A stretch of DNA of 64,000 nucleotides from Verrucomicrobiota bacterium JB022 (GCA_030673845.1 JAUTCQ010000012.1:307218-371217), one strand, 5' to 3'; counted from the first letter of the stretch, positions 2 to 28,300 are shown. Numbers and translations: made by a program. Notes: generated from the letters alone by a model not told the origin.

Positions 2-265
2 GTCGAATTCGACTATGCTGACGGCCTGGTGGAGACAGGTGCCCTGACGGATTTCCAGATCGCGGGAGAAGACCGTATCTTCCACCCGGCCAAGGCGACG
101 ATTACCGATCGCGATACCGTGCTGGTGTCTTCACCCGAAGTGCCTTCGCCCGTAGCGGTGCGCTTTGGCTGGAGCAATGCCACCAACCCCACCCTTTTCA
201 ATGCCGCCGGGCTCCCTGCCTCCACCTTCCGCACGGATGACTGGCCGCCGCCCGCCGCCGAATAA
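2..265 (+). CDS. 3' fragment (window-truncated) of a carbohydrate esterase; sialate O-acetylesterase-like C-terminal domain
   Basis: The frame is open from the window edge to TAA at 263-265. The C-terminal residues '...VAVRFGWSNATNPTLFNAAGLPASTFRTDDW' match the conserved tail of the SIAE / 9-O-acetylesterase family. The N-terminus lies outside the window. Confidence 0.55.
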   Translation, partial: VEFDYADGLVETGALTDFQIAGEDRIFHPAKATITDRDTVLVSSPEVPSPVAVRFGWSNATNPTLFNAAGLPASTFRTDDWPPPAAE

Positions 266-277
266 TCTGCTACCGAC

Positions 278-1453: not shown

Positions 1454-1456
1454 CGA

Positions 1457-2218: not shown

Positions 2219-2889
2219 GGCATTACCCCCCTGCAAGGGAGTCTGCCTAACTTCATTTCACGCTCGGCGGCGATCCGCAAGCGAAAGAGCCCCGCCTGCA
2301 TCCAGACCTCTAGCTTCAATGGACGGTATTCAAGGTCTTCCCAAACGATCGGGGTGCGCTTCTCTGCGCAACTCCCGATCAGGATTTTTGAACGAAGGCA
2401 CGCTTGAGGTCACGAGAGCTAGCGAAGGAACCAAAGTAAACGTGCAAACTTAGCTCAGAGGTTGTGACGGTAGCGTAACGCCAGGCCGGTTAAGCTAATC
2501 TGTTCAACAATACTATGAGTGCCAAATTTGAACGTTATAAAATCAAACAGTTTGCGCCAGCACCGCTGTAAATTCCTTCCAGAATGCTTCAGACAACCGA
2601 AAACCTGAAGATTTGCCCCCGCAGAAACAGCGAGAAGTAAAAACAAAAAATGCTCGCAAACCCGCAGCGGCAGCGAAATCGCACCGGCCTCCCCGTTACG
2701 ACCGACCCGGCGAATCAGCCAATATAACCAAATCTAATTCGCATCATCAGCATATCAACGCCGCCTAATTGACTCTTCTTGCATCAGTTTCCTTTTCGCC
2801 AAAAAGTTACGATAAAGGCGTTGTGCCGAGAGGGAGGATGAGCCTTATCCTCGGTCCTGAATCCGTGACCTTCGTTTGATTTCTCTCAC

Positions 2890-3702
2890 ATGAATAAGTT
2901 CCTTGCCTCTCTCTCGATCCTGGGTGTCGCTGCGGCTAGCCAAGCCTATGCGCTCTGGGGCGTTAGTGCCGACAATTCGCTGATCAAGTTCGATGCCAGC
3001 AATCCGAGCGTGATCCAGAGCCGCACGGCCATTACCGGGCTGAACGATCCGTTCGCGTCGATCCTCGACTTCGACTACAACCCCAACGACGGCTATTTCT
3101 ACGGCGTCGACACCGGCGCGAACGTTTACCGCATCCGCTCCAACGGCGTTGCGACCCAGATCGGCAGCTTTGGCCCCAGCGGCTACGACGCCGATATGGC
3201 CTACGATCCGTTCTTTGGCAACTTCCGCTGGGTCAGCGATTTCGCCGAGAATGCGATGCTCGAGCTCGATGGCTCCTTCAGCTTTGGCGGCGACTTCTTT
3301 TACAGCGTCGACGACGTGAACTTCGGCAATACGCCTTCGCTGACCGGCATCGGGATCGACCCCGACTTCGGCGAAATGTACATGATCGATCCCGAGCTCG
3401 ACGTGCTGGTGCAGACCTTCGACCCCGATGGCGGCGAACTCTTCACCATCGGCAGTCTCGGCCTCGACATCACCGGCTTCTCCTCGTTGGTGATCGACGA
3501 CAATGGCAACCTGTTTGCCGCCCTGTCCGTCGACGGCTTCACCTCCGGCCTCTACTCGATCGATCTGATGACCGGCGCCGCCACCTGGATCGGCGAATTC
3601 GGCGAAGGCATCAACGCCATCGCCGTGCCGGAGCCCCGCGTCTACGCCGCCCTCGCCGGGCTGCTCGCGCTGGGCCTCGCCGTAATCCGCCGCCGCCGCT
3701 AA
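2890..3702 (+). CDS. PEP-CTERM-anchored secreted protein (exosortase substrate)
   Basis: Signal peptide MNKFLASLSILGVAAASQA. The C-terminus 'VPEPRVYAALAGLLALGLAVIRRRR' is a PEP motif followed by a hydrophobic helix and an Arg cluster. The Gly/Asp-rich beta-type body has no enzyme motifs. Confidence 0.75.
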   Translation: MNKFLASLSILGVAAASQAYALWGVSADNSLIKFDASNPSVIQSRTAITGLNDPFASILDFDYNPNDGYFYGVDTGANVYRIRSNGVATQIGSFGPSGYDADMAYDPFFGNFRWVSDFAENAMLELDGSFSFGGDFFYSVDDVNFGNTPSLTGIGIDPDFGEMYMIDPELDVLVQTFDPDGGELFTIGSLGLDITGFSSLVIDDNGNLFAALSVDGFTSGLYSIDLMTGAATWIGEFGEGINAIAVPEPRVYAALAGLLALGLAVIRRRR

Positions 3703-3722
3703 GGCCGCGCATTTTCTCCTGA

Positions 3723-5366
3723 TTGTCTTCGTTACTTAGGTCTCTCATGAAGTATACCCTCCTCCTCCTTGGCGCGACGACCTTGTCCGCGTCTCTCTTC
3801 GGCGGTTACAAGACCACCGAGCCCTCCTACCTGAACGCCGTCGCTGGTGCCGACTTCACTTTCGAAGCGTTGTTGACCACCGGTGACCGGATCCCGATGA
3901 CGGGTGGCACGCCGAGCGAAGAATACACGATGGTCGGCATTCCCGACGCGATGGGCATCTATCGCGACCCGGTCACCGCCGAGCCGATCCTGTTCCTTGC
4001 TCACGAGCTGCCCAGTGGCCGCACTTCCCAGCCGATCGTCGGCGGCGACACCTACATTGGTTCCCTCGTCTCCCGCTTTGTGCTCGACTCGACCGATGGC
4101 TCCCTCGTGAGTGGCGGCCTCGCTCACCAGGCCCTCTACCTCGAGAACGCCTTCTACAGCCCCGAGCCTCCCAAGCAAGGCGACTCCACGTCCTTTACCC
4201 GTTTTTGCTCCGGCTCGTTCGCGGGCCCGATGCACGGGATGGATCGCCCGATCTTCCTCACCAACGAGGAAAGCAGCGGCGGCACCTTCGACGCAGCCGG
4301 CTCCCAAGCCGTGGCCATCTTCGACGGCGAGATGCACACCCTGCCGGCTCTTGGCCGTGTAGTGCGTGAAACGACCATCGTTCAGCCCCGCCGCGACCGC
4401 TACTCCGTAGTGATCTCGTCCGAAGACGGTGGCTTTCCTTCCTACGTTTACATGTATGTGGGCACCAAGCAGCGCTCGGGCGATGCGCTGACCAAGAATG
4501 GCTTCACCGGTGGCAAGATCTACGTGCTCGGCGGTAATGGTGCCGACGCTGGCAAGAATGCCTCCACCTTCACCGAAGGCTCGATCAATGCCCGTTGGAT
4601 CGAAGTGCCCAACGCCGCCAACCTGACCGACGCCGAGCTGAAGCTGGCTGCCGACGCGGCGGGTGGTTTCGGCTTTGTGCGCGTGGAAGATATGGAATTC
4701 GACCCGCAAGACCCGACCCGTCGCCTCTTCGTCGCCACCACGGGTGGTTACGGCCCAAACAGGCTCGGTCGTCTCTACGAAGTGAGCATCAACCCGCGCC
4801 AGCCTTGGGCCACGGGGTCGATGGACGTGATCTACAACTCCGACCTCGTCGTGACCCCTGGCGGCACGATGCAGAACGCCTTCTCCGGCCCCTTCTACTC
4901 CGCCAATGGCGGGACGGAAGTGCAGCCCGAGTATGTGGGTGGCGATATCAATTCCGGCATCAACTACCCGGTGAGCATCGACAATATCGCGGTGAACGAT
5001 AACTACATCGTGATCTGCGAAGACACGAACAGCCCGGCCAATGCCGTCTACGCCCAATACAGCCGCAACGGCGGCGTGTGGACGCTCGATCGCAACAATG
5101 GCTACGCCGCCAAGTTCCAGTCGCAGTTCAACCTGGATTACGCCGAAGCTCGCGACAATGTGAGCCTCAGCGCCGGCCAGTGGGAAGCCTCCGGTGTGAT
5201 CGACGCCAGCGCCATCTTCGGCCCGGACACCTTCGTGATCAACGTCCAGGCCCACGGCACCGACCGCACAAACGCTCCCGACGGCATGGGCGGCTACCTT
5301 ACCAAGCAGCAAGCGGACGCCCGCTTTGCCGAAGACGGCCAGCTGCTGATCATGCGCGCGAACTAA
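3723..5366 (+). CDS. PhoX-like / DUF839 family secreted phosphatase-like protein
   Basis: 547 aa with an N-terminal signal-like segment (MKYTLLLLGATTLSA). Motifs resemble PhoX: 'RFCSGSFAG' (cf. NCAGGxTPWGT), 'IFLTNEESSGG' (cf. LTCEEN), 'DNIAVNDNYIVICEDT', and the C-terminal 'FGPDTFVINVQAHG' (cf. FSPDGKTLFVNIQHPG). It lies 21 nt downstream of the PEP-CTERM gene. An alternative start exists at M9. Confidence 0.65.
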   Translation: MSSLLRSLMKYTLLLLGATTLSASLFGGYKTTEPSYLNAVAGADFTFEALLTTGDRIPMTGGTPSEEYTMVGIPDAMGIYRDPVTAEPILFLAHELPSGRTSQPIVGGDTYIGSLVSRFVLDSTDGSLVSGGLAHQALYLENAFYSPEPPKQGDSTSFTRFCSGSFAGPMHGMDRPIFLTNEESSGGTFDAAGSQAVAIFDGEMHTLPALGRVVRETTIVQPRRDRYSVVISSEDGGFPSYVYMYVGTKQRSGDALTKNGFTGGKIYVLGGNGADAGKNASTFTEGSINARWIEVPNAANLTDAELKLAADAAGGFGFVRVEDMEFDPQDPTRRLFVATTGGYGPNRLGRLYEVSINPRQPWATGSMDVIYNSDLVVTPGGTMQNAFSGPFYSANGGTEVQPEYVGGDINSGINYPVSIDNIAVNDNYIVICEDTNSPANAVYAQYSRNGGVWTLDRNNGYAAKFQSQFNLDYAEARDNVSLSAGQWEASGVIDASAIFGPDTFVINVQAHGTDRTNAPDGMGGYLTKQQADARFAEDGQLLIMRAN

Positions 5367-12166: not shown

Positions 12167-13714
12167 TTAGCTGATGGTGTCGACGTTGTTGCCGAGGTTC
12201 AGGTAGTCGATGTATTCCTGCGGGTTGGTGCCGTTGAGGTATTCCTCGATGTTGGTGTAGCCATCGCCGTCGGCATCTTCAGCGGCATCGGCGGGGTTGT
12301 GCGGGTCGAGGCCGTAGCGGATTTCCCACTCGTCGGGCATGCCGTCGTTGTCGGAGTCGACCGGCACTTCGTCGGGCGAGAAAGTGTAGTTCGGGTAGCC
12401 GCCCACTTCCTTCGGGTCGTCGATAATACCGTCACCGGAAACCACCTTGCCCGTGCGGACCGACTCGATCACGCGCTGGTCCACCGAGTCGCGGCGGGGC
12501 AGCGTGGCACCGACCTTTGCGAGGACGGATTTGTAGGCCTCGTGGGCGGTCTCCTGCTTGACCGGCCAGCCTTCGAAGGGCGTGTAGACGCGGGCGAACT
12601 GCTTGAGCTTTGCCTCGCTGTCGAACATTTCCATCTCGTCGAGATCTTCGACCTGGACGCCCTTCCAGTTGTCCTTGGTCACTGCGGGGTGGCCTTCCAT
12701 CACGTTACCGGCGATGTACCACTTGCCGGGGCGGGCGGGAGCCTTCGGATACCAGTCGCCGGCACGCCACTCGCTGCCGGGCGAATACATGTTGCGGACG
12801 TTGGGGGTCAGGCGCACCAAGACATCCTTCATGTCCTTGCTCGCGGCCGGGCCGGGCTTGTAGTAGTTGTTGATGACGTTGATCAGCGAGGTTTCGTCGC
12901 CGCCATCCATCGTCCGGTGGCCCCAGTTGAACACCACGTTGTTGCGGTAGTCGAACTCGCCGGACATCCCGATGGAGGGGTTGCGGGCGGTGTTGCTGGC
13001 AAAGAGGTTGTGGTGGAAGGTGGAGTCCTTGCCGCCCCAGGTGCCGCCGAACGCGTGGTTCTTGGCGTTGAGGGCTTCGCTGGAAATGGACCACTGGATG
13101 GTCAGGTTTTCGACCGGGTACTTACGGTCGCCACCCTTTTCCTGAGGCTCCATGCGGCGGTAGAGCGAGAGGTTTTCGTCCATGCCCCAGCTGGAGGAGC
13201 AGTGGTCGATGATGATCTGGCCGATGGGGTTGCCGCCAATGTTATCCGAACCTTGTCCGCCTTCGGGACGTCCGCGGCGGGAGCGGAGGTGTCGAACGAT
13301 GACATTGCTCGTGTTGATATTGAGCGAATTGTAGGCGAGGCAAATGCCGTCGCCCGGGGCCGATTGGCCAGCGATCGTGATATCGGGGTGGTTGATGTCG
13401 ATATCCGACTCAAGCTCGATGATGCCGGCGACGCGGAAGACCACGATGCGGGGGCCTTCGGCTTCGGCTGCCTCACGGAAGCTGCCGGGGCCGCTGTCGT
13501 TGAGGTTGGTGACGATCATCACCTTGCCGCCACGACCGCCCGTGGCCTGCATGCCGCCACCCCAGGCACCGGGGAAGGCCGGGATCTTGAGATCCATGCG
13601 GATCGGGTGCGGCGGGATCTGGCCGGGCTCGGGCACGGTCTTTTCCTGCGCGAAGGCAGCGCTGCTGCCCAGAAGCGTAAGGGCGGCAAAAAACGAGGGG
13701 AGGGTTACTTTCAT
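12167..13714 (-). CDS. Pectate lyase, polysaccharide lyase family 1, secreted, with C-terminal thrombospondin type-3-like Ca-binding repeats
   Basis: Signal peptide MKVTLPSFFAALTLLGSSAAFA; the start is set at this Met inside the longer ORF. PL1 motifs 'IIDHCSSSWGMDENLSLYR' and 'NLFASNTARNPS'. The C-terminus carries DxDxDG repeats (DSDNDGMPDEWE, DADGDGYTNIEEY). Confidence 0.85.
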   Translation of the reverse strand: MKVTLPSFFAALTLLGSSAAFAQEKTVPEPGQIPPHPIRMDLKIPAFPGAWGGGMQATGGRGGKVMIVTNLNDSGPGSFREAAEAEGPRIVVFRVAGIIELESDIDINHPDITIAGQSAPGDGICLAYNSLNINTSNVIVRHLRSRRGRPEGGQGSDNIGGNPIGQIIIDHCSSSWGMDENLSLYRRMEPQEKGGDRKYPVENLTIQWSISSEALNAKNHAFGGTWGGKDSTFHHNLFASNTARNPSIGMSGEFDYRNNVVFNWGHRTMDGGDETSLINVINNYYKPGPAASKDMKDVLVRLTPNVRNMYSPGSEWRAGDWYPKAPARPGKWYIAGNVMEGHPAVTKDNWKGVQVEDLDEMEMFDSEAKLKQFARVYTPFEGWPVKQETAHEAYKSVLAKVGATLPRRDSVDQRVIESVRTGKVVSGDGIIDDPKEVGGYPNYTFSPDEVPVDSDNDGMPDEWEIRYGLDPHNPADAAEDADGDGYTNIEEYLNGTNPQEYIDYLNLGNNVDTIS

Positions 13715-13912: not shown

Positions 13913-15364
<1,452 letters not shown>

Positions 15365-15407
15365 GCGCTCATTCGATGCTCAATTACAGAACCTGCAACC
15401 TCAAAAG

Positions 15408-15424
15408 CGGTCAATTTTTGACCG
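15408..15424. promoter_or_regulatory. Palindrome CGGTCAA-TTT-TTGACCG, candidate enhancer/UAS for the adjacent bEBP
   Basis: Perfect 7-3-7 inverted repeat. It lies about 100 bp upstream of the putative -24/-12 element and 44 bp upstream of the divergent bEBP gene start. Confidence 0.4.
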
Positions 15425-15523
15425 GGCATGCGATCAGCCGTTGATCAAAAACAGTTTACACAAGCGTAACCTGTGCTCCAAAGCGGTGATGGCGAAGGCT
15501 TTGACCGCGTAACCTGAACGTGA

Positions 15524-15539
15524 CGGCACGGCGGATGCC
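15524..15539 (+). promoter_or_regulatory. Candidate sigma-54 (-24/-12) promoter 'cGGCACggcggaTGCc' for the TonB-receptor/phytase genes
   Basis: GG at 15525-15526 and GC at 15537-15538 have the canonical 12-nt offset and match TGGCAC-N5-TTGC with 2 mismatches. It lies about 60 nt upstream of the TonB receptor start codon and next to a divergent sigma-54 activator gene. Confidence 0.45.
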
Positions 15540-15598
15540 AAGAAGGAGGGCAACTTGTGACTGAGCCTACCCAACTGCATTGCTGAAAACCACTTCCC

Positions 15599-18409
15599 AT
15601 GATTCGTAAAACCCTCCTCTCGCTGAGTTCGCTGGCGCTGATGCTGGCCTCCGGCTCCTCTCTCTGGGCCGATGGCACCGTAACCGGGATCGTACGCGAC
15701 GCGCAGACCGGCCTGAGCCTCGAAGGCGTCCAGGTGTCCGCCAACGGCGCCACCACCACGACCGACCGCAGCGGCCGCTACTACCTCCAGCTCCCCGCCG
15801 GCACGCAAACGCTGCGCTTCGACTACCTGGGCTCCGAGACCAAGAGCCAGGTAGTGGACGTGGCCGACGCCCGCACCGCACAGGCCGACATGAGCCTAGG
15901 GCTCGAAATTTTTGAAATGGATGCGTTTGTGGTCCAGGGTCGCGCCCTCGGCACCGCCCGTGCGCTCAACCAGCAGCGCGTGTCCGACAACCTGCGCAAC
16001 GTGGTCTCGGCCGACGCCATCGGCAAGTTCCCCGACGAAAACGCCGCCGAGGCCCTTTCCCGCCTCCCGGGCGTCTCCATCGAGCGCGACCAGGGCGAAG
16101 GCCGCTTCGTGATCATCCGCGGGATCGACCCGGAGCTCAACAGCGTGTCGATCGACGGCGTGGCCCTCGCCACTCCTGGCGCGGACGAGCGCAAGACGTT
16201 GCTCGACACCATCCCGACCGAGACTCTCGCCTCCCTCGAAGTGACCAAGGCCGTGCTGCCCGACCAGCCGGGCGACTCCATCGGCGGCCACATCAACCTC
16301 GTGACGCCCAGCGCGTTCGACCGCGACGAGCGCTTCATCACGGCCTCCGGCGCCGCCCTCTACTCGGACTTGACGGACGAGTTTGGCTACAAGTTCAGCG
16401 CCTTCTATTCCGACTTCCTCGATGCCGACCGCAAGTGGGGCATCGCCCTCTCCGCCGTCGCCTCCGAGCGCAAGTTTGGCTCCGACAACATGGAGTCCGA
16501 GCCTTGGGAGCTGGTGGAGGGCGACGATGGCCAGGAATACTGGGCCATGACCGACGCGATGGAGATCCGCGAGTACAACCTGAGTCGCGAGCGCCACGGC
16601 CTGAGCTTCAACCTCGATTACCGCCCCACCGACACGGCCCAATACTACCTGCGCGGCAGCCTGAGCGAGTATACCGACCAGGAAATCCGCCACGCCGGAG
16701 TGCTGAGCTTTGGCGAAGAGTGGGAAGATGAAAACGAGGACGAAGGCGACATCACCGAGTTCACCGGGCTGGGCGACAACGGCTACACCGCCGAAAATGT
16801 GGGCCTGGCCCGCGAGATCAAGGACCGCGAAGAAACGATGTCGATCTACGCCATCTCCGCCGGCGGCCTCAACCGGATCGACAGCCTCACGCTCGATTAC
16901 AAGGCTGGCTTCTCCTTCGCCAAGGAAGAGACGCCTTACGATTTCGAGGCCAAGTTCGAACTGCTCGAAGACGCCAACCACACCGACCCGAGCGACGGCG
17001 ACTTCGAGGTCTACCGCATCAATCCCGACTTCGCCTTCAGCAATACGCGCGGCGATACGCTGGGCATCAACTTTGCCGGCCCAGGCTCGGACATCGACCC
17101 CTACGACGCCAACAGCTACGAATTCGATGAAGTCGAGGCTGCCCGTCAGGACGTGGAGGAAAAGCATTACACGGCCGAATTCAACGCCCGCTACGACTTT
17201 GAAGACAGCTTCCAGAGCTACGCCAAGGTGGGCGGCATGGTCCGCGCCAAAAACAAGACGAGCGACGTCAGCGTCCGCGTCTCCGACGACAACCCGGGCG
17301 ACCTCGACGAGCTGGCCGGCTTTGTCGAGAGCGACGTCCGCGATGCCTACCGCACCCGCCTTCCGCTCGTGACGGAGAGCATCCGCGATTACTTCCGCGC
17401 CAATGAGGGCGCGTTCGCGATGGAAGACGACCTCGAAGGCAACGTGGTCGAAGACTTCGATGCAGACGAATACGTGTGGGCCACCTACGCGATGGGCGGC
17501 ATGACCTTCGGCCAACTGAACGTGATCGCCGGTGCCCGCCTCGAGCATACCGACTTCCAAACCAAGGGCTTCCGCTATGATGGCGACAGCGAGATGGTGA
17601 CCGAAACGGAGTTCGAGAGCGACTACACGAACTTCCTGCCCGGCGTGCACTTCCGCTACGAGATCACGCCCGACTTCATCGCCCGCGCCTCGTGGACGAA
17701 TGCCTTCGCCCGCCCCACCTTCGCCCAGCTCTCACCGGGTATCGTCGTCGATGGCGACGAGATCGAACAGGGCAACCCGGAGCTGGATCCCTATGAATCC
17801 ATGAACTGGGATGCCTCGCTCGAATACTACTTCCAGAACCTGGGGGTGGTCTCCATGGCGGTGTTCCACAAGAAGGTCGACAACTTTATCTACGGCTACG
17901 AATTCACCGACGACGCCACGGGCAACGACATCAGCACCTACCGCAACGGCGAATCGGGCGACATTACCGGCGTGGAGCTGGGCTACCAACAGCGCCTGAC
18001 CTTCTTGCCGGTCGAGGGCTTCACCTTCCTCGCCAACGCCACGTGGTCGGAGAGCGAGGCCGAAGTGCTCGAACGCGGCGACATGCCCTTCGTCAAGCAG
18101 TCCGACCTGGTGGGCAACGTCGCCCTCTCCTACGACTACGGCAACTTCTTTGTCCGCGTCTCCGGCACTTACCGCGATGGCTACCTGGACGAGCTGGGCG
18201 AAGAGGCCTTGGCCGACCGCTACATCGACAGCCACTTCCAGGTCGACATCAGCGCGTCTTACACCTTCGCCCACAACTGGACGGTTTTTGCCGACCTGAT
18301 CAACGTGACCAACGAGCCGCTGCGCGCTTATTGGGGCGAATCGGGTCGCCTCGCGCAGTTCGAGGAATACGGCTGGTCGGCTGTGCTCGGCCTGAAGTGG
18401 AGCCTGTAA
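15599..18409 (+). CDS. TonB-dependent outer-membrane receptor with N-terminal carboxypeptidase-regulatory-like domain
   Basis: 936 aa with a signal peptide and a 'GTVTGIVRDAQTGLSLEGVQVS' CarbopepD_reg-like domain. The plug region is '…NVVSADAIGKFPDENAAEALSRLPGVSIERDQGEGRFVIIRG…'. The long beta-barrel has an aromatic-rich C-terminus. Confidence 0.85.
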   Translation: MIRKTLLSLSSLALMLASGSSLWADGTVTGIVRDAQTGLSLEGVQVSANGATTTTDRSGRYYLQLPAGTQTLRFDYLGSETKSQVVDVADARTAQADMSLGLEIFEMDAFVVQGRALGTARALNQQRVSDNLRNVVSADAIGKFPDENAAEALSRLPGVSIERDQGEGRFVIIRGIDPELNSVSIDGVALATPGADERKTLLDTIPTETLASLEVTKAVLPDQPGDSIGGHINLVTPSAFDRDERFITASGAALYSDLTDEFGYKFSAFYSDFLDADRKWGIALSAVASERKFGSDNMESEPWELVEGDDGQEYWAMTDAMEIREYNLSRERHGLSFNLDYRPTDTAQYYLRGSLSEYTDQEIRHAGVLSFGEEWEDENEDEGDITEFTGLGDNGYTAENVGLAREIKDREETMSIYAISAGGLNRIDSLTLDYKAGFSFAKEETPYDFEAKFELLEDANHTDPSDGDFEVYRINPDFAFSNTRGDTLGINFAGPGSDIDPYDANSYEFDEVEAARQDVEEKHYTAEFNARYDFEDSFQSYAKVGGMVRAKNKTSDVSVRVSDDNPGDLDELAGFVESDVRDAYRTRLPLVTESIRDYFRANEGAFAMEDDLEGNVVEDFDADEYVWATYAMGGMTFGQLNVIAGARLEHTDFQTKGFRYDGDSEMVTETEFESDYTNFLPGVHFRYEITPDFIARASWTNAFARPTFAQLSPGIVVDGDEIEQGNPELDPYESMNWDASLEYYFQNLGVVSMAVFHKKVDNFIYGYEFTDDATGNDISTYRNGESGDITGVELGYQQRLTFLPVEGFTFLANATWSESEAEVLERGDMPFVKQSDLVGNVALSYDYGNFFVRVSGTYRDGYLDELGEEALADRYIDSHFQVDISASYTFAHNWTVFADLINVTNEPLRAYWGESGRLAQFEEYGWSAVLGLKWSL

Positions 18410-18440
18410 TACCGAGCCCTTTGCTCTGAACGAAACTCGG

Positions 18441-18474
18441 GCGGGCGCGGTCCCAATCCTGCGCCCGCCCGTCT
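18441..18474 (+). terminator. GC-rich stem-loop (CGGGCGGGCGC…GCGCCCGCCCG) between TonB receptor and phytase genes
   Basis: 11-bp perfect inverted repeat with a 12-nt loop. The 3' tail (tctcttatcc) is only moderately U-rich. It may be an intra-operon attenuator or a weak terminator. Confidence 0.4.
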
Positions 18475-18533: not shown

Positions 18534-20969
18534 ATGAAGACGACTTTCCCGCCCCTGTGCGGCACGCTTGGAGCGCTGCTGCTGGGCCTCACCGCCTGCC
18601 AGAACACCCCTGCCCTCTCCTCTTCCCGCAACGACTCCGGCCTGCGCCTCAACGAGGTCAAAGCCGGCATCCCGGACGACGTCCACGCCCTGCAATTCAT
18701 CGAGCTAGTAGGGCCCGCAGGGCAGCCGATCCAGAATACCTGGCTGCTCGTGATCGACGGCGATGACGCCGACAACCCGGGCACGGTAGATATCGCGGTA
18801 AATCTCGACGGCCAACGCCTGGGCGCCAACGGCCTGTTGCTGGTCCGCGGACCCGGCCAGTACGCCGATGCCGCCCGCGAGACGGCTGTGCTGGAGCTGC
18901 CGGAGATCCGCTCCTACAGCGACGACTCCCACCCCGACGGATTGATTGAACACGACGCCGTGACCTTCCTGCTCGTGCAGGGTACGCAGCTCTCCTTCCG
19001 CGCAGGCGATGACCTGGACCCGAACAACGCGGGTGAGCTGGCCTTGCCAACCGGCACCCAGATCGTCGACAGCGTGGGCTGGCTCGACAATGGCGCGGGC
19101 GTAGGCTACACCCCGGCGCTGCTCAACCAGTCCGCCGGTGGTCCCGATGCCGCCAGCCGTCTGCGCGACCACCACGAGGCCAACGCCGCCTCCGCCTGGG
19201 CCAATGGTGGCCTCCAGGAGACCAGCCCCGAAAGCAATCGCTACAACCCCAATGCGGCCAGCGTCAACCTGCCCCCCAATGCGAAGGTGACGCCCGGCCA
19301 TCCCAACTTTGCCTACGCGCCGTTTGCGCTGCTCAACGAAGTGGCAGCGCCCAACACGTCCAGTGGCGGCTTCGTGGAAGTTCTCGGCCACCCCCACCAG
19401 TCGCTGGACCACGTGTATCTCGTCGGCGTGGCGGGCCATGAAGTCGTGCTCGTCATGAGCCTCGACGGCCAGGCCACCAACCTCGACGGTATCTTCTACG
19501 GCCCCGCCCAGGCTCAAAGCGACGCACTACAGCAAGTTTTCGCCGCCGATGTGGCCAGCCTGCATCTCGTCTACAGCCCAAAGGTGGACCTGAGCCGCCA
19601 GAACCTCGAACTGCGCGACAACCTGCTGCGCGTGCCCGCAGGCGTGCAGGAGATGGACCGCCTTGCGTGGACGAGCAACCCGCGCTTCATTACCGTGCAG
19701 GAAGACGAACGCGTGTGGGTCGACTACCCGGTGCAAGCCGTGACCCGCTATCGCGACAACCGCCTGACCGGCCCTGATTCTTGGACCTACGGCAGCCTCG
19801 ACGGCGATGCCTATGCCGCTTCGGCCTCGAAGAACGTGCCGGCGAAGGGCCACCTAACTCCTGGGCGAATCAACGTCTCGGAGCTGGCGGCGGCACTCGT
19901 GATGCCGACCGTCGAGACCGCGCGCACCACCTTCACCCCGCCGGATGCGGACGACCCGGCCTTCTGGCACCACCCCACCGACCCCAGCCGCAGCCTCGTG
20001 CTCGCCACCCAGAAAGAGGCCGGCTACTCGATCTATGACGCGCAGGGCCGCACCCTGAAAGACGCGCAGCCGGGCGACATCCGTTTCAACAACGTGGATG
20101 TGGTCTATGGCTTCCCGCTGGGCGGTGAAAAGGTCGACCTGGCGGTGTTTACCGACCGCTTCAGCGACCAGTTGGGCCTCTATCGCATCCAGCCCGACGC
20201 GCCGTACTTGATCGACGTGACGGATTACGCCTCGCCCAAGCTCTTCGACGGCGAGCCGGGCGAAGACACCGCCTATGGCAGCGCTGCCTATGTCAGCCCC
20301 GTCGACGGCAGCTATTACGCCTTTGCCACCCAAAACGGCACCAACCGCGTGGCGCAAGTCCGCCTTGTGGCCAAGGGCGCCAAGGTGGGCTGGGAACCGG
20401 TGCGCGAAATCGTGCTCGCCGGCGGCGAAGAAGACGAGCACGCCGAAGGCATGGTAGTCGACCAGGAGCGCGGCATCCTCTACGTTTGTCAGGAGCCGAC
20501 CGCAGTCTACCATGTCGATGCCGAGCCGACCGAAGCCGTCACCACGCTGACGGCAGACGATTTCCTCGCGGCGGCGGGCGACGACAACCTGCGCGAAGAC
20601 ATCGAGGGCGTCACGATCTACTACCTGCCCGACGGCCGGGGCTACATCCTCGTATCGAGCCAGGGCAGCAACACCTTTGCGGTCTACGACCGCGCCAATC
20701 ACGCCTTTGTCGGGTCGTTTGCGGTGGTGGCCAATGGCGAGGGGATCGACGGCAGCCAGGACTGCGACGGCCTCGACGTGACCAACATGCCGCTGGGGCC
20801 GCTCTTCCCCCAAGGGGTGCTGATCGTACACGACGGGCAAGACCGTGGAGACGGGCCCGGCGACTACGCCACAAATTTCAAGTGGGTACCTTGGGAACGG
20901 GTAGCCGAAGCGTTGGGACTTGAGGTCGATACAAGCTATAACCCGCGCGCCCCCCAAGGCCGCCGGTAA
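18534..20969 (+). CDS. Lipoprotein with lamin-tail (LTD) domains and C-terminal beta-propeller phytase (3-phytase) domain
   Basis: Lipobox 'LLGLTAC'. There are two LTD-like segments (LRLNEV…QFIELVG… and …GFVEVLGHP…). Beta-propeller phytase motifs: 'DDPAFWHHPTDPSRSLV', 'EGMVVDQERGILYVCQE', 'SSQGSNTFAVYDR', 'DCDGLDVTNMPLGPLFPQGVLIVHDGQ'. Confidence 0.8.
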   Translation: MKTTFPPLCGTLGALLLGLTACQNTPALSSSRNDSGLRLNEVKAGIPDDVHALQFIELVGPAGQPIQNTWLLVIDGDDADNPGTVDIAVNLDGQRLGANGLLLVRGPGQYADAARETAVLELPEIRSYSDDSHPDGLIEHDAVTFLLVQGTQLSFRAGDDLDPNNAGELALPTGTQIVDSVGWLDNGAGVGYTPALLNQSAGGPDAASRLRDHHEANAASAWANGGLQETSPESNRYNPNAASVNLPPNAKVTPGHPNFAYAPFALLNEVAAPNTSSGGFVEVLGHPHQSLDHVYLVGVAGHEVVLVMSLDGQATNLDGIFYGPAQAQSDALQQVFAADVASLHLVYSPKVDLSRQNLELRDNLLRVPAGVQEMDRLAWTSNPRFITVQEDERVWVDYPVQAVTRYRDNRLTGPDSWTYGSLDGDAYAASASKNVPAKGHLTPGRINVSELAAALVMPTVETARTTFTPPDADDPAFWHHPTDPSRSLVLATQKEAGYSIYDAQGRTLKDAQPGDIRFNNVDVVYGFPLGGEKVDLAVFTDRFSDQLGLYRIQPDAPYLIDVTDYASPKLFDGEPGEDTAYGSAAYVSPVDGSYYAFATQNGTNRVAQVRLVAKGAKVGWEPVREIVLAGGEEDEHAEGMVVDQERGILYVCQEPTAVYHVDAEPTEAVTTLTADDFLAAAGDDNLREDIEGVTIYYLPDGRGYILVSSQGSNTFAVYDRANHAFVGSFAVVANGEGIDGSQDCDGLDVTNMPLGPLFPQGVLIVHDGQDRGDGPGDYATNFKWVPWERVAEALGLEVDTSYNPRAPQGRR

Positions 20970-20983
20970 GAGAGTTGAGAGAG

Positions 20984-21010
20984 CCCGCACCCCTCCAGGT
21001 GCGGGTTTTT
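20984..21010 (+). terminator. Rho-independent terminator (CCCGCACC-loop-GGTGCGGG-TTTTT) after phytase gene
   Basis: 8-bp stem followed by TTTTT, 15 nt after the phytase stop codon. Confidence 0.75.
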
Positions 21011-21080
21011 CGTCGACAACGTCACCGAAACGTCACGCCCCGGCCCCGCCCGTTATGGTAAAATCGACCGTTCAGCCCTC

Positions 21081-23141
21081 ATGCGCCTGAGCTTCCTCAC
21101 CCTGATCGCCGTCTGCGTCAGCCACCTCGGCTGGGGTCAGGGCAGCACGCTCTCGAAGGAAGACCTCGTCAACGCGGTGTGGCACTACCACCTGGAAAGC
21201 GCGTTGGCCGAGCCGGAGAAGGTCTACAAGCTCGACCTTTCGCGGCAGGGGCTGGAAGCCTTCCCGCTGGAAGTGACGGGGCTGCCCAACCTCCGCATCC
21301 TGCTGCTCAACCACAACCGGATCGCAGTGGTGCCGCCGGAGATCGGGCGCCTGCAAAAGCTGGTGGAGCTGGAGCTGAACGACAACGAGCTGGAGGAGCT
21401 GCCGCCCGAGCTGTTTACCATCGGCACGCTCTCAGAGTTGGAGGCCTCGCGCAACCGCATCCGCGAGCTGCCCGCCGCCGTCGCCCAGCTGCACCAGTTG
21501 ACCGAGATCGAGCTGAACGAAAACCGCCTGACGCGTCTGCCCGACGAGGTGGGGCAGCTGACGGAGCTTGAAGAGCTGAAGGTGGCCCGCAACCAGTTGA
21601 CCGAGCTGCCGGCCTCGATCCTCGAACTCGACCAACTAGGCGAACTGGTCGTCGGCTCCAACCAGCTAAGCCACCTGTGGCCCGACATCGACCGCCTACG
21701 CAATCTGCGCGACCTCGACATCTCCAACAACAACCTGCGCGAGCTGCCAGCGGCGCTCTTCGATTTCCACCTCAGCCTGCTCTTTCTCAAGAACAACCCT
21801 TTTGCCCATCCGTTGACGGAAGAGCAGGTGGCCGCCGTGCTCCACGCCGAGGAAAACGACTTCGACGCGGTGATCCTGAGCCTGGCCGAGGCGGGCGACG
21901 CTGTATTGGCGGAGCGTTATCTGGATTTTGCGCAGCGCTATTTCGAGGAACACAAACTGTGGGGCGATCTCGCCGCCGCCTACCTCACGGCAGCCTTCGT
22001 CTACCGCGACCTGGGGCAGCTGGAGCTGGCCGTGGATTACACCAACCGCGCGGAAGCCTTGGCCGAGGAAGTCAATTTCGACTTGTTGACGGCGGACGAC
22101 GACGAGGCCTTTTACGCCAACACGACGGAGATCATCCGCGACGCCCAGAACCTGCAGGAGCTGTTGCACAGCGAACATGAGAAGGCGACCCTGCGCCGCA
22201 ACGTACGCTGGGGCATGATCGCGGGGATGGCCCTGCTGATGGGCTTCTCGGCTTTCGTCTACTGGAGCCGTCGCCGCCTGCAGCGCTACAACCGGGAGCT
22301 GGCCGAGCAGCGCAGACAAATCGCCGAACAGGCCGAGGCGCTGGAGCTGGCAAACGATCATCTGACCGCGCGACAGGGCGAGATTTTGGCGCAAAACGAG
22401 CGGATCGAGGCCCAGGCAGCGGATCTGCGCCGCCTCAACGCGACCAAGGACCGCATCTTTTCCATCGTGGGACATGATTTGCGCAACCCGCTTTATGCGA
22501 TCGAAAGCGTGGCCGAGCTGATCGAAGACGAACAGGGCTTTTGCGAGCCGCAGGAGCAGCAACGCCGCGCCCAAGTGATCCAACGCAGCGCGCAGGAGGC
22601 GTCCCAACTGCTCCACAACCTGCTCGACTGGGCGCGTACCCAGACCAACGACATCCCCTACCGTCCGGGTTTCGTCCAGCCGGGGGTTTTGGTCGATAGC
22701 ACGCTCGACCTGCTGCTGCCTTCCATCCAGCGCAAGCGGCTGCTGATCGACTCGCGGATCGCACCGCATACGGTCGTTTATGCCGACCCGCACATGCTGC
22801 AGACGGTTTTTCGAAACCTGATTGGCAATGCCATCAAGTTCAGCCATGAAGGTGGCCGCATCAGTGTGTGCGAGCGCCAGAGCGAGTCGTGGCACGAGTT
22901 CGAGATCGCCGACGAAGGAGTCGGCATGGAACAGGGAGTGGCCAAGGGACTGCTGCGGCAGACCCGGATCCACTCGGCCACCGGCACCCGGGGAGAAAAA
23001 GGAAGCGGGCTGGGCCTGCTCATCTGCCGCGAGTTCATTGCCCGCAACGAGGGAATGCTGGAGATCGATAGTGCCCCGCAGCAAGGAACGCGCTTCGTCG
23101 TCCGCCTGCCCCTGGTCGGCCTTGCGTTAGCGGTACGTTAG
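21081..23141 (+). CDS. Sensor histidine kinase with N-terminal leucine-rich-repeat (LRR) and TPR-like sensor region
   Basis: Signal/TM, then about 8 LRRs (LxxLxLxxNxLxxLPxxI, e.g. 'LPNLRILLLNHNRIAVVPPEIGRLQKLVELELNDNELEELP'). A helical TPR-like region, a TM and a coiled coil follow. HisKA 'FSIVGHDLRNPLYAI'. HATPase_c 'GNAIKFSHEGGRISV…DEGVGMEQ…GSGLGLLICREF'. Confidence 0.85.
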   Translation: MRLSFLTLIAVCVSHLGWGQGSTLSKEDLVNAVWHYHLESALAEPEKVYKLDLSRQGLEAFPLEVTGLPNLRILLLNHNRIAVVPPEIGRLQKLVELELNDNELEELPPELFTIGTLSELEASRNRIRELPAAVAQLHQLTEIELNENRLTRLPDEVGQLTELEELKVARNQLTELPASILELDQLGELVVGSNQLSHLWPDIDRLRNLRDLDISNNNLRELPAALFDFHLSLLFLKNNPFAHPLTEEQVAAVLHAEENDFDAVILSLAEAGDAVLAERYLDFAQRYFEEHKLWGDLAAAYLTAAFVYRDLGQLELAVDYTNRAEALAEEVNFDLLTADDDEAFYANTTEIIRDAQNLQELLHSEHEKATLRRNVRWGMIAGMALLMGFSAFVYWSRRRLQRYNRELAEQRRQIAEQAEALELANDHLTARQGEILAQNERIEAQAADLRRLNATKDRIFSIVGHDLRNPLYAIESVAELIEDEQGFCEPQEQQRRAQVIQRSAQEASQLLHNLLDWARTQTNDIPYRPGFVQPGVLVDSTLDLLLPSIQRKRLLIDSRIAPHTVVYADPHMLQTVFRNLIGNAIKFSHEGGRISVCERQSESWHEFEIADEGVGMEQGVAKGLLRQTRIHSATGTRGEKGSGLGLLICREFIARNEGMLEIDSAPQQGTRFVVRLPLVGLALAVR

Positions 23142-23269: not shown

Positions 23270-25384
23270 ATGCGCAAGAGCTTGCTTCATCATTCCGTCA
23301 AAGATCCGCTCATTATGGCCGGAATCGTCCTGGCGGCTGCGCTCTTTGGCATCTTTACGCGCCAGATCGGTTTTTTGGCCGCCTTCTGGCCCGCCAATGC
23401 CCTGCTGATCGGGTTGATGATCCGCACGCCTCGTTACGCGGCGCTACCCAACTGGGTCGCAGCCTTCGTGGCCCTCGTTGCCGCCGACGTGCTGGCGGGT
23501 ACCACTTGGCATCTGACCCTGTGGCTGACGAGTGCCAATATGGTGGCAATCTTCACCGGGTACCTGCTGCTGATGCGCATGAACGAGGCCGATCGCCAGT
23601 TGCGACGCCCCCTTTCCGTGCTCTACCTCTTCGCAGCCTGCACCATCTACTCGATCGCCGCCGCGACGGTAGGCGCTGGCACTGCGCCCGTTTATTTCGA
23701 TAAACCTTACTGGGCCGGCTTCGGATTCTGGTCTACCGCCGAGTTGGTCAACGCCGTCATCGTCCTGCCGATGCTGCTGACCTTCCCAACCGGTGCGGCT
23801 CTATGCGAGAAGTTGCGGGAGATGGGGAAGCTGCGCTGGGCCAAAAGGTTGGCTCCGGCAGCGGCCCTCCTCGCGTCCCTCTTCCTCGCGGTGCTGATAG
23901 ACGGCCCGGGCTCGATGGCCTTTCCTGTGCCCGCCCTGCTCTGGTGCGCGCTCAGCTACAGCCTTTTCTCCACCGCTACCCTTACAACGGCCCTCTGCAG
24001 CGGCATGATGGTAGCCATCGCTACCCAGTTCATCGCCATACCGCTCGGCGAAGATCCGATGGCGGCCATGGCCTCGGTGCGTCTCGGCCTCGTGCTCATG
24101 GCCCTCGCGCCTCTGACGGTGGCAAGCGTCAGCCTCGTCCAACGCGAACTGCTGGAGGCCGAGCGCTTGCATGGCGAGAAGCTGGAGAAGGCGAAGGAAA
24201 CGGCGGAAGCGGCCCAACAGGCCAAGAGCAACTTTCTCGCGATCATGAGCCATGAGATCCGCACGCCCATGAACGGCATCATTGGACTCACCGATCTGCT
24301 CAACCGCACTTCGCTGGACGCGGAGCAGGCTGACATGGGTCGCCTGATCAAGCACAGCTCCGAAAACCTGCTGACGATCCTCAACGACATTCTCGACTTT
24401 TCCAAGATCGAGGCCGGCAAGCTGGAGATCACGCCGGAGAGATTCGAGCTCGCCCCCTTGGTCGAAGATGTTGCGGCCCTGCTCGCTCCGGCCGCAGACA
24501 AGAAGGGCCTCGCGCTGAATCTGGAGATCGACCCCGCCCTCAGCGAGCCTTTGTGGGGCGATGCCGGGCGGATTCGGCAGGTGTTGACCAACCTGGTGGG
24601 CAACGCGCTGAAATTTACCACGCAGGGTAGCGTCACGATTGTCGCACGCGAGCTGGAGCACTCCGACTGCAGCGTGACATTTCGCATGGCCGTGCGTGAC
24701 ACGGGGATTGGCATTGCCCAGGCAGCCCAGGCCCAGCTTTTCCAGCCCTTCACGCAAGTCCATGACGCCCCGGCCCGCAAGTTTGGCGGCACCGGGCTCG
24801 GCTTGTCGATCTGCCAACAACTGATCCACCTGATGGGCGGCCAGATCGGCCTGTCCAGCGAGTCGGGCCGGGGCTCGGAATTCTGGTTTACCCTCACCCT
24901 GCAGCGCAACGGCCAAGAGGGAAACAAGCGTCATCCCCGGCCCAGCGCCCCTACCCCAGGCCTGAACCCTGTTCAGCGTTCCCTGGATTTGTTGGTGGCC
25001 GACGACAACGCCGTCAACCAGACCGTCATTCGCCGCCTGCTTGCCTCGATGGGGCACCGGGTAGAGATCGTGAGCGACGGGCAGGAAGCACTCGATCGCC
25101 TGGCCCAGCAGCCTTTCGACGCGGTATTGATGGATTGCCAGATGCCGGGCGTCGACGGCTACGAGGCCACGCGGCGGATTCGTTCCGGATCCTTGCCAGG
25201 CGTCGATGCGAACGTTTGCGTGATAGCCCTGACCGCTTCGGCCATGTCTGAAGCGCGGGACGCGTGCCTTTCCGCCGGGATGGACGACTTCGTCAGCAAG
25301 CCCATCCGCCCCGAGGAGATGCACGCCGCCCTGCAACGCGTTTGCAAGGCCGGTGAAGACGCGACGCAGGAGCCGACCGCGTAG
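23270..25384 (+). CDS. Hybrid sensor histidine kinase / response regulator with MASE1-like polytopic membrane sensor domain
   Basis: About 300 aa of multi-TM N-terminus. HisKA '[18 protein letters not shown]'. HATPase_c ([10 protein letters not shown]…DTGIGI…[13 protein letters not shown]). C-terminal REC domain ([13 protein letters not shown]…[18 protein letters not shown]). Confidence 0.9.
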
Positions 25385-25389
25385 CGCAT

Positions 25390-28300
25390 CTAGTCGTCAT
25401 GCGCCTGGCTTTCCGGGAGCGGGTCGAGCCCGATCCGCAGGAAGAGGCGGTTGAAGGCGCGCAGAAGGGTGCGCAGTTGCCATTTGATATCGTCGGATAG
25501 CTCGATGTGGTGGGTTAAGGCCGTGTTTTCGGGTGCGGCCGAAGGGGTGAGATGCTGGAGCTGAGCGTCGAGTCGGCGCAGAGGCTCGACCACAGTCTCG
25601 GCAAGCTGCCCCAGCGAGGCGGAAAACTCCGGCGGCAGGTGCAGCGTTGCAGGCGTGGCGGGGCGTTGTGCGGCCTCGGCCAAAGGCGCGAGCGAACGCC
25701 CCACCTGCCCTTGCAGCGCGGCCAGGGACTGCGTGAGCGTGGTCAGATCTTGGCGGAGCGCGCCCAGGCTGTCGGGGGTAAGGGCGAGCGGCGGCAGCGG
25801 GCGCTCCAGTAGCTGGGCCACTTGCGCCTGCCCTTGCCCGAACTGGGCCAAATGGGTTGATACTTCCGCGCGGAAGGCAGGGTCGAGCATCACCGGCTGG
25901 CCCTGCTGGCCCACCGCCGTCTCCAGCTGGCTGGAAATCTTGCCGACGCCTTGGGTCAGGTCGTGCACTGCGCCGACCACGCGGTCGACGGGGTCCTGAT
26001 CCTTCGCACCCATCACGGAGTTGCGCACGTAGCGTTCCTTGACGAGGGCCCAGCGCGCCTGTTCCTGCTCGGTCAAGAGGCCCTCCATCTCACGGAACTT
26101 CAGGAGATTCGACTCCGCCCCGGTGGTGAGGGTCTGGGCTTCGCCCACGTAGTGCTGCAAGACGAGCGCATCCACCTCGCCCGGCGTCATGAGCGGCAAC
26201 ACCTTTTCCGCCATCCGGTTCATGTTGCGGTAGGAGCCCTGGAGCTTGAAGGGCGGCTCGGTGCGGTAGTTGTCTGCCGTGGCGGCGCTGCGGATATACT
26301 CGAGGTTGACGCGCAGGACGGTGTCGCGCACGCGCATCAGGTGACGCGTGACGGTGACCATCTCGTTGACCTCTTCCATCGAATAGTTGCCGACAAAGTC
26401 GACGCCTTCATGGCTGCCCGTCTCCGCGATGCGCATGACGGCGTAGACGTCTTCGCGTGCCTTGCCTGCGAGCGTGCTGAGCGCAGGATTGGAAGTGAGG
26501 CAGTTTTCGAGGTAGCTGGCCTCGAAGGCGGTGCGGTTTTGCTGCACCATGTCGCCCAGGTTGTAGGTGTCGGCGCGGTTGGCCAACATGTCGGGGATCT
26601 GGAAGCGCCCCCCCGTCTCGGTGTAAGGGTTGCCGGCCATAACGACGGCCACCTTCTTGCCGCGCAAGTCGTAGGTACGCGCCACGCCGTTGTAGACGCC
26701 CTCGATCTTGCGCTGCCCGTCGCAGAGCGAGATGAACTTCTGCAGCAGCTCCGGGTTGGTGTGCTGGATGTCGTCGAGGTAGATCATCACGTTGTCGCCC
26801 ATCTCGAAAGCGAGATTCAGCTTGTTGACCTCCTCGCGGGCGCTCGCGTTGCGGGCTTCGCTGGGGTCGAGGCTGGTGACGTCGTGCCCGATGGCCGGGC
26901 CGTTGACCTTGACGAAGGTGATGCCGAGGCGGTTGGCGACATACTCCATCAGGGTCGTCTTGCCGTAGCCGGGCGGCGAGATGAGCAGCAGCATGCCCAT
27001 GCGGTCGGTGCGGGTGTTCTCGCCGGCGGTGCCGATCTGCTTGGCCAGGTTGTCGCCAATGAGGGGCAGGAAGACTTCGTCGAGCAAGCGGTTACGCACA
27101 AAGGCGCTCATCACCTGCGGCTTGAACTCGTCGAGCCTCAGCTTTACGCGCAGGGTCTCGACCAGCTCGTGCTTGCGGCGGTCGAAGGCCAGCCACTGGG
27201 GCATGGTATCGCCCTCGAAGCGGCGGAGCTTGCGCAGGAAGTGGTTGTAATGCAGGTGGTAGCGACGGCCCTCGCCCAGCACCGGGTGATCGCCCCGCAA
27301 GCCTTCCAGGTCGCGCTCCAGCGGCACTTCGACGACCTGGCTCGGCTGAATTCCGCCGCGCAGGAGGTGGGCCGCCGTCTCGTCCACGTATTCCAGCTCA
27401 CGCTCGTTCAGGCCTTGGGCAAGGCCGTAGCCGAGCAGCCAGTCGCGGATCACTTCAAATTCGGCGGCGGGTTGCCCCTTCATGCGCTCGCGGGCCTCCT
27501 CGAAGGCGTTGAGGTAGCGCTGCGCCACCAGCTCCACGCGGAAGCGCTCGGCGAGCTGCGCGGCTTCGCGGCTGACCGTCAGGCTGTCGGGCGTCACCAG
27601 CTCGGTAAACAGATAACGCGCGGCCTCCGGGGCGAGTGCGGCCGGGAACAGCGCGGTGCGTTCGCAAAACTCCTCCACCGCCCGCTCGATCTCGCGGATG
27701 TAGCCGGCCTGCGTCTGGTGCTGCGGGAAGAGCCGCCGCATGGTGGCAAAGGAATCGAGCCTCTGGCTGAGCAACTGGCGCTGTTCGCTGCCTGCATACT
27801 GCTCCCAGAAGACGAGGGCGCAGGCGCGGGTCGCCGTGTCGTAGCGCAGCAGGCCGACCACGGCGTGGATCTCCACCAGTGCATCGAGCAGCAGGCGGGC
27901 GTCGAGGTCGTGCAGGCCCTTGGAGTAGCCTTCGCGGTAGCGCGGGCCCATGAACCGTTGGATCCAGGCCAGGCGGGCTTCGGGCGTGGCGGCGAGGTAA
28001 CCCGGCAGGTCAAGCCCGTCCCCACCCTGCTCCAGTGCCTGCAGTGCCGCGTAGGCGAGGAATTCGGCGCGGTAGACGGTGTCGCTCTCGCTCGGCAGCT
28101 CCATGTCCCACACCGGGCGGAGAGCGTTCAACTCCTCATCCACGATACGCTGGAAAAACTGGGTGCCGGTGAGGTGGTAGTAGAAGTCGCCCTCGCGCCG
28201 GACCGTCGTGAGGTTCAGCTCTTGCTGGTTGACGGTGAACTTGTGGCGGCCGAACTGCAGGAGGTTGGTGCCGTCGACGAAGAGCTCCTGCCGGTCCTTG

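Follow-up and report, generated by a model that had tools for sequence, protein, structure and literature searches.

Among the organic forms of phosphorus in soils and sediments, phytate is one of the major pools. The expression of bacterial phytases is described, in the literature searched, as being under phosphate-starvation (Pho) control, and in the same literature no paper was found linking a phytase to sigma-54 or pairing an LRR kinase with a bEBP. The action of a two-component bEBP on a -24/-12 promoter is a textbook mechanism. The GC at position -12 of sigma-54 promoters is nearly invariant, and NtrC-type enhancers usually comprise two or more sites. The described systems closest to the locus presented here are the enteric NtrB/NtrC-glnAp2 system, the PhoR/PhoB system and, from general background, the substrate-sensing two-component systems found beside TonB-receptor utilisation loci, for instance the hybrid two-component systems of polysaccharide utilisation in Bacteroides.

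Verrucomicrobiota bacterium JB022 is a little-studied marine bacterium. The window analyzed in this work is a stretch of 64,000 nt of its DNA (GCA_030673845.1 JAUTCQ010000012.1:307218-371217), in which a gap of 234 bp (15365-15598) is flanked by the minus-strand gene of an activator on one side and by the plus-strand gene of a TonB-dependent receptor on the other. The Pfam domains and the coordinates agree with the preliminary description of this DNA, where the gap had been placed between a sigma-54 activator gene and a TonB receptor. Phytate-phosphorus scavenging appears to be under a dedicated sensor kinase and activator in this locus, and not under the usual phosphate-starvation switch. The best explanation, which we regard as probable, is that the gap is a divergent control region, with a sigma-54 promoter for a receptor-phytase operon, a divergently encoded activator and an LRR kinase as the partner of the latter. 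The features of the locus are the following:

13913-15364, minus strand: NtrC-family response-regulator activator (bEBP), with Pfam REC, Sigma54_activat, AAA_lid_14 and HTH_8
15404-15425, no strand: 22-nt block AAAGCGGTCAATTTTTGACCGG with the 7-3-7 dyad, candidate UAS (22/22 identity to Puniceicoccaceae 5H)
15455-15476, plus strand: conserved block TTTACACAAGCGTAACCTGTGC with motif B (15458-15471), recognized by its conservation in related loci
15524-15539, plus strand: putative sigma-54-type promoter, cGGCACG (-24) N4 aTGCc (-12), from the pattern and the orthologous elements
15599-18409, plus strand: TonB-dependent receptor, gene 1 of the operon (Pfam, NCBIfam)
18438-18471, plus strand: hairpin of 13 bp, rich in G+C, in the receptor-phytase intergenic space (terminator scan, fold energy)
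18534-20969, plus strand: phytase lipoprotein of 811 aa, gene 2 of the operon (Pfam Phytase PF02333)
20984-21010, plus strand: intrinsic terminator closing the receptor-phytase operon (fold energy, stem kept in 5H)
21081-23141, plus strand: LRR-domain sensor histidine kinase (Pfam LRR_8/LRR_14, HisKA, HATPase_c)
23270-25384: hybrid kinase, the second kinase downstream

An ORF of 1810 aa with a high GC3 (25390-30822, minus strand) is convergent with the hybrid kinase. Within the 64-kb window, neither an ORF with an RpoN box nor pst/pho genes were found, tRNAs were absent, and Rfam gave no match either in the gap or across the whole window. Since bEBPs act only with sigma-54 and the one encoded here is intact, the genome can be presumed to carry rpoN.

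The activator, whose sequence is 100% identical to a protein of Verrucomicrobiota bacterium JB022, contains the Pfam domains Response_reg, Sigma54_activat (E 4e-71), AAA_lid_14 and HTH_8, and both its GAFTGA loop and the receiver residues E9, D10, D55, T83 and K105 are invariant across five orthologues. Its score was 434.9 bits against TIGR01818 (cut-off 558.6) and 390.8 bits against NF008176 (cut-off 620). Because it falls below the TIGR01818 cut-off, the protein is not an NtrC orthologue, though it is a member of the family.

The search of genome contigs with the activator yielded a single true orthologue, that of Puniceicoccaceae bacterium 5H, the other 79 matches being generic bEBPs with about 40% identity. 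This closest relative has the same divergent layout, and its activator, receptor and phytase are 80, 69 and 70% identical to those of JB022, respectively. A second activator, P0003, which is 50% identical and belongs to the locus designated L083, was accepted as an orthologue by its context, with the genes of a receptor and a 376-aa phytase running divergently from it and that of an LRR-HisKA-HATPase kinase convergent with it. Four further proteins with 47-51% identity (P0004, P0006, P0007, and P0008) were discarded, as they belong to a different orthogroup with an Hpt/PAS-kinase context. Directly after the phytase of L083, the region 159-3758 carries exbB-exbD-exbD-tonB and a TPR protein, which suggests a self-contained uptake locus in this lineage.

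Additionally, the LRR kinase (21081-23141) was used as a probe, and only about eight full-length homologues were detected in 5.8 billion proteins. In the loci L167, L168, L170 and, in part, L169, the LRR kinase is convergent with an NtrC-type activator wherever the contig is long enough, and on the other side of these activators lie, in divergent orientation, the genes of a receptor and of a phytase measuring about 380 aa. The conserved module is thus composed of the LRR kinase, the activator, the receptor and the phytase. Six activator-bearing loci were compared (JB022, 5H, L083, L167, L170, and L168), corresponding to only about four independent lineages, all from metagenomes, and they share this gene set, in which the histidine kinase has an LRR domain, the activator is of the NtrC type, the receptor is TonB-dependent and the phytase is a beta-propeller protein. 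A metagenome search with the receptor alignment retrieved mostly receptor loci lacking the activator, and these served as negative controls.

The sequence cGGCACggcggaTGCc (15524-15539, plus strand) has GG at 15525-26 and GC at 15537-38, with exactly 10 nt between them, and its GC is situated 61 nt ahead of the receptor ATG (15599). These coordinates confirm what had been noted before, namely a GG and a GC at the -24/-12 spacing about 60 nt before this ATG. The pattern GGCAC-N6-TGC was found five times in the 64-kb window against 4.8 expected, that is, at chance frequency, and the JB022 site agrees with TGGCACG-N4-TTGCW at 9 of the 12 positions, a score equalled by about 40 other sites of the window; it has no T in front of GG and none at -14. 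Perfect inverted repeats with 7-bp arms and spacers of 0-10 nt, such as the one found in this gap, numbered 57 in the 64 kb versus about 68 in shuffled sequences, or about one per 1.1 kb, so that around 0.2 would be expected in a gap of 234 bp. Since the promoter match and the palindrome are each at chance level in the window, motif statistics alone were set aside as evidence, and the significance of both elements comes only from their position, their orientation and their conservation in the related loci.

All six activator-bearing loci contain exactly one GGCA[CT]G-N5-TG[CT] (yGGCAyG-N5-TGy), on the receptor-sense strand and 43-74 nt before the receptor ATG. The same pattern has a single match in the whole 64-kb window, and in unrelated loci fetched as controls, some 1.5 Mb in total, its background rate was 0.005 for each 200 nt of strand. 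Moreover, TGGCACGG was the sole 8-mer (one mismatch allowed) common to the six intergenic regions. The individual elements are:

JB022: cGGCACGgcggaTGCc
5H: tGGCACGcccggTGCc
L083, 7942-7927, minus strand: tGGCACGaaccgTGTt
L167, 12597-12612: tGGCACGgcctcTGTt
L170, 5276-5291: tGGCACGggcccTGTt
L168, 12584-12599: tGGCATGggtatTGTt

The orthologous promoters score 10/12 against TGGCACG-N4-TTGCW, and TGGCACG is perfect in four of them. The element of 5H has GG and GC with 10 nt between, as in JB022, and the substitutions between these two bacteria are located in the spacer and at -14, leaving GGCACG and TGC untouched. L083, L167, L170, and L168 retain this spacing and have GT (TGT) as the -12 pair, followed by a conserved T(A)AAG. 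By contrast, the motif was not present, even in its loose form, upstream of any of 20 homologous receptors unaccompanied by the activator, most of which lie beside a phytase; Pho boxes of the type TGTCA-N6-TGTCA were detected in four of these 20. Two independent comparisons, JB022 with 5H and L083 with L167 and L170, revealed the same three islands of conservation: the dyad, motif B and the promoter.

The preliminary description had proposed that the receptor and the phytase are under sigma-54 control, and the proposal is strengthened by the presence of the element in 6/6 activator-bearing loci and in 0/20 receptor loci devoid of the activator. Judging from these sequence comparisons, the gap very probably contains a real sigma-54 promoter that reads into the receptor-phytase genes, with transcription predicted to start near 15549-15551 and to give a 5'UTR of about 50 nt. 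The presence of the conserved promoter in every related locus found speaks for dedicated control rather than for a phosphate-starvation switch.

It could be argued that GGCACG...TGC is no promoter at all, that the operon is transcribed in a sigma-70-type or PhoB-dependent manner, and that the activator regulates something else. The chance frequency of the motif in the window, its moderate match of 9/12, the GT at -12 in four orthologues and the Pho boxes at phytase/TonB-receptor pairs elsewhere are in line with this alternative. However, the distribution of the element (all six activator-linked loci, with matching position and strand, versus none of the 20 activator-less ones) argues against it, as do the substitutions between JB022 and 5H, which spare the consensus positions, and the co-occurrence of activator, receptor, phytase and kinase at each of the loci. 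In the gap itself, the promoter scan found no sigma-70-like pair of hexamers, and no Pho box (CTGTCAT-N4-CTGTCAY, two 7-bp direct repeats with an 11-bp period that take the place of the -35) was found at up to 3 mismatches. We therefore consider transcription from a promoter of another class very unlikely.

Two side observations concern this region. At the predicted transcription start of JB022, a strong Shine-Dalgarno-like AAGGAGG is followed by TTG-TGA, a start codon with a stop directly after it (15543-15560); it is not kept in 5H and is probably fortuitous. In L168, the 10-mer TGGCATGGGT occurs twice (12484-12493 and 12584-12593), at a distance of exactly 100 bp. Of the two copies, the downstream one serves as the -24 element of the predicted promoter, and the upstream one has no -12 partner and lies inside a short ATGCC-GT-GGCAT dyad.

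The palindrome CGGTCAATTTTTGACCG (15408-15424) forms a perfect 7-3-7 dyad centred 109.5 bp upstream of the promoter GG, in keeping with the earlier report of a perfect palindrome about 100 bp upstream of the promoter, and about 134 bp upstream of the predicted transcription start. Its geometry matches that of the NtrC-type 17-bp dyad. An NtrC-type UAS is expected to be a dyad-symmetric site of some 17 bp, placed 80-150 bp ahead of the promoter, and the JB022 dyad has this size and position. The block that contains it, AAAGCGGTCAATTTTTGACCGG, is identical to that of 5H at 22 of 22 positions and is the longest perfectly conserved block of the gap, the flanking spacer having diverged, and its distance to the promoter is the same in both bacteria. 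Conserved TTGAnC sequences resembling half-sites were noticed, by eye only, 23 bp downstream of the dyad. No second copy of the dyad was found in the whole window at up to 2 mismatches. An imperfect repeat, CGGTGA...TTGACCG (15486-15508), was dropped from the analysis because it is not preserved in 5H.

In L083, L167, and L170, the corresponding place is taken by another dyad, GTGACC-N6-GG(T/A)(C/T)AC, with GGTCAC as the second half in the first of these loci and GGATAC in the other two. It has the half-site TGACC in common with the dyad of JB022 and 5H, but in the opposite orientation. No clear dyad was seen at this place in L168. The dyad of the distant loci abuts the annotated ATG of the activator (L083 8058-8037, L167 12480-12501, and L170 5145-5166), and on the activator-sense strand it reads as a mini-ORF of four codons, ATGGTCAC(G/T)GAATGA, whose stop overlaps that ATG and in which the single substitution seen is synonymous.

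The palindrome had also been interpreted as the enhancer of the promoter, an interpretation that is plausible. It is favored by the geometry, the distance and the 22/22 conservation in 5H, and weakened by the single copy and by the other dyad in the distant loci. Because it has the geometry and the position of an NtrC-type enhancer, the dyad is retained as the best candidate for the activator site in the JB022 genome; since a different dyad is found in the distant loci, its role as the activator site is plausible only.

On the minus strand the palindrome would give a stem of 7 bp with a loop of 3 nt followed by CUUUU, 43 nt upstream of the activator ATG, and so it might be taken as a leader element of the activator mRNA, a hairpin with a role in stability, attenuation or translation, instead of a protein-binding DNA site. 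Against this, the predicted fold is weak (-8.4 kcal/mol, z = -1.9), with 7 of 200 shuffled sequences folding as well, the run of T is short and reduced to only 3 T in 5H, and the palindrome has no Rfam match. No compensatory changes were detected between JB022 and 5H, as the dyad block is identical in both. An RNA hairpin or terminator was consequently rejected as the main reading of the palindrome, on account of the weak fold, and we regard it as highly improbable.

Between the dyad and the promoter lies motif B, ACACAA-NN-GTAACC (15458-15471), which had been overlooked in the preliminary description. It is exact in JB022, 5H, L083, and L167 and has one mismatch in L170, and in these five loci it is situated 63-67 bp upstream of the -24 GG; L168 carries a degenerate version, TTTACATATGAGTGATT, at 66 bp. 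No other occurrence was found in 1.6 Mb of fetched loci. In JB022 and 5H it forms part of the second island, TTTACACAAsCGTAACCwGTGC. The distance from the dyad to motif B is 42 bp in four loci and 56 bp in L170, due to a 14-bp duplication. Motif B is better conserved and better positioned than the dyad. It is non-palindromic and fits neither the IHF nor the Pho-box consensus: the IHF consensus WATCAANNNNTTR has no match in the window, and motif B occupies the position between UAS and promoter where such a site would be located but does not conform to it. The possibility that motif B is a -35/-10 promoter for either gene was dismissed, as no conserved -10 was seen by eye on either strand.

These observations raise the question of which element the activator binds. 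The HTH recognition helix distinguishes two subgroups of activators, with ITRNTFRKRL in one and (V/I)(T/S)RLTLRRK(M/L) in the other. The helices differ at two positions, N/L and F/L, in step with the change of the dyad, a difference compatible with co-variation of the protein and its site. The residues corresponding to the DNA contacts of Fis (R, T, R, K/R of the recognition helix) do not differ between the subgroups, so that a site that does not vary is compatible with the activator as well. It is possible, then, that the sigma-54 promoter is real but that the activator binds motif B, the palindrome being an operator or leader element of the activator gene, for autoregulation or for another repressor. 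This possibility draws on the retention of motif B across both DNA-binding-domain subgroups at a fixed distance (63-67 bp) from the -24 GG, on the invariant Fis-contact residues, on the dyad abutting the annotated start codon of the activator in L083, L167, and L170, and on the behavior of the dyad, which differs in sequence and orientation between the subgroups and in L170 is 14 bp further from motif B than in L167. On the other hand, motif B has no dyad symmetry, and inverted repeats are the sites to which NtrC-type activators bind with their HTH_8 domains, as dimers; the dyad of JB022 and 5H has the exact NtrC 7-3-7 geometry at a typical enhancer distance and in the longest perfectly conserved block of the gap, and the N/L and F/L positions of the recognition helix change in step with it. 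For these reasons, binding to motif B in place of the dyad is judged rather unlikely, and the dyad is kept as the candidate enhancer in what follows.

The genes downstream of the putative promoter encode the receptor and the phytase. The receptor has the Pfam domains CarboxypepD_reg, Plug and TonB_dep_Rec_b-barrel and was assigned to the TonB-Xanth-Caul subfamily (NCBIfam TIGR01782, 543 bits, cut-off 310), and its start codon and signal peptide are conserved in 5H. In the second protein, the C-terminal beta-propeller (residues 444-805) corresponds to the phytase domain (Pfam Phytase PF02333, E 5.5e-67), and a lipobox-type signal, LLGLTAC, is visible in the translation. Its N-terminal part of about 440 aa (18534-19860) gave no Pfam match, and the orthologues in L083, L167, L168, and L170 have a length of 376-386 aa and a single domain. 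The interval from the receptor stop to the phytase start contains a hairpin (18438-18471; -30.3 kcal/mol, z = -6.1) with no T-run, which may be an attenuator or else an mRNA-stabilising or processing element setting the ratio of receptor to phytase. After the phytase, a stem formed by CCCGCACC and GGTGCGGG and followed by TTTTT constitutes a strong intrinsic terminator (20984-21010; -22.9 kcal/mol, z = -5.0), whose stem is conserved in 5H with a changed loop. This terminator delimits an operon consisting of receptor and phytase.

The LRR kinase gene is located directly after the phytase and is syntenic with the activator in 5H, L083, L167, L168, L169, and L170. This corrects the previous view of the activator as an orphan response regulator with no adjacent kinase, since the kinase gene is found just after the phytase and is syntenic in every locus. 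Its strict synteny with the activator makes the LRR kinase the probable partner, and the two proteins are probably a cognate pair. By contrast with this synteny, the hybrid kinase (23270-25384) is not beside the module in L083, L167, or L168, and the 5H locus ends before that position. Inspected by eye, the translation of the LRR kinase displays a signal peptide, a periplasmic LRR region, a normal H-box (GHDLRNP) and, at about 378-395, one hydrophobic stretch that is a candidate for a transmembrane segment. As no segment exceeded the threshold of the hydropathy scan, the membrane topology given here is a reading and not a computed result.

The LRR kinase gene starts 70 nt past the terminator and has an upstream region of its own. 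This region (21018-21064) carries AACGTCAC-cga-AACGTCAC, a direct repeat whose period is 11 bp, and, 22 nt further on, TAAAAT; both are kept in 5H. The layout of the AACGTCAC repeat (7+4+7) resembles that of a Pho box, and the region as a whole looks like an activator-dependent promoter of the sigma-70 type.

Taken together, these data can be arranged in a mechanism in which we infer the sigma-54 dependence, the pairing of kinase and regulator, the element bound by the activator and the nature of the signal; the motifs with their conservation, the gene and domain content, the synteny and the terminator are directly observed. The LRR kinase, expressed from its own promoter, would sense a periplasmic signal through its LRR domain; phytate or a derivative is a guess made from the target genes only. 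The kinase would then phosphorylate Asp55 of the activator, which would oligomerise on the upstream DNA, at the dyad with or without motif B. Motif B could be a second contact of the activator or the site of an architectural protein or a co-regulator. ATP hydrolysis and the GAFTGA loop would remodel and open the closed complex of sigma-54 at 15524-15539, and the receptor and the lipoprotein phytase would be produced from a transcript ending at 20984-21010.

A further and more tentative idea is that this is a rare module dedicated to phytate, in which the periplasmic LRR domain of the kinase senses phytate or a cue derived from it, and the scavenging of organic phosphorus is induced by its substrate from a sigma-54 promoter, independently of PhoB, mostly with GT at -12 and with a factor bound at motif B; we consider it possible but less likely than not. 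As the activation of -24/-12 promoters by two-component bEBPs is a textbook mechanism, the advance made here is the assignment of a new regulon and not a new principle. If correct, it would provide a second regulatory route to phytase, in marine Verrucomicrobiota, and a likely function for a very rare class of bacterial sensor kinases, those with an LRR domain. The module also offers a concrete set of promoter and operator sequences. Three of its features are out of the ordinary: the LRR sensor, motif B and, in most members, the GT at -12.

Among the known systems, NtrB/NtrC-glnAp2 of enteric bacteria resembles the JB022 locus in its REC-AAA+-HTH_8 regulator with a GAFTGA loop, in its promoter with GG at -24 and GC at -12 separated by 10 nt, in the 17-bp 7-3-7 dyad about 110 bp upstream of -24 and in the partner histidine kinase encoded nearby. 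The two differ in that the JB022 kinase is read as a membrane sensor with a periplasmic LRR domain, whereas NtrB is cytoplasmic; in that JB022 has one dyad, against two or more in the NtrC type; and in that the presumed target is a TonB-dependent receptor with a phytase and not nitrogen assimilation. Moreover, the activator is here below the TIGR01818 cut-off, and 4/6 members of the family have GT at -12.

The likeness to PhoR/PhoB lies in the target, a TonB-dependent receptor paired with a beta-propeller phytase, and in its presumed role in the scavenging of phytate phosphorus. However, the gap of JB022 has no Pho box, whereas TGTCA-N6-TGTCA is present at homologous receptors without the activator; the JB022 activator is an AAA+ protein that would act on sigma-54, and PhoB a winged-helix protein acting on sigma-70; and the signal is likely periplasmic and perceived via the LRR domain in JB022, while PhoR/PhoB responds to the flux of the Pst transporter. 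With the hybrid two-component systems of polysaccharide utilisation in Bacteroides, the locus has in common a periplasmic sensor kinase encoded next to a TonB-dependent receptor and to a hydrolase, located at the surface or in the periplasm, whose induction it presumably brings about. The output is of the AraC type in those systems and an NtrC-type sigma-54 activator in JB022, the sensor is a beta-propeller or Y_Y_Y domain there and an LRR domain here, and the substrate is a glycan in Bacteroides and, as proposed, an organophosphate in JB022.
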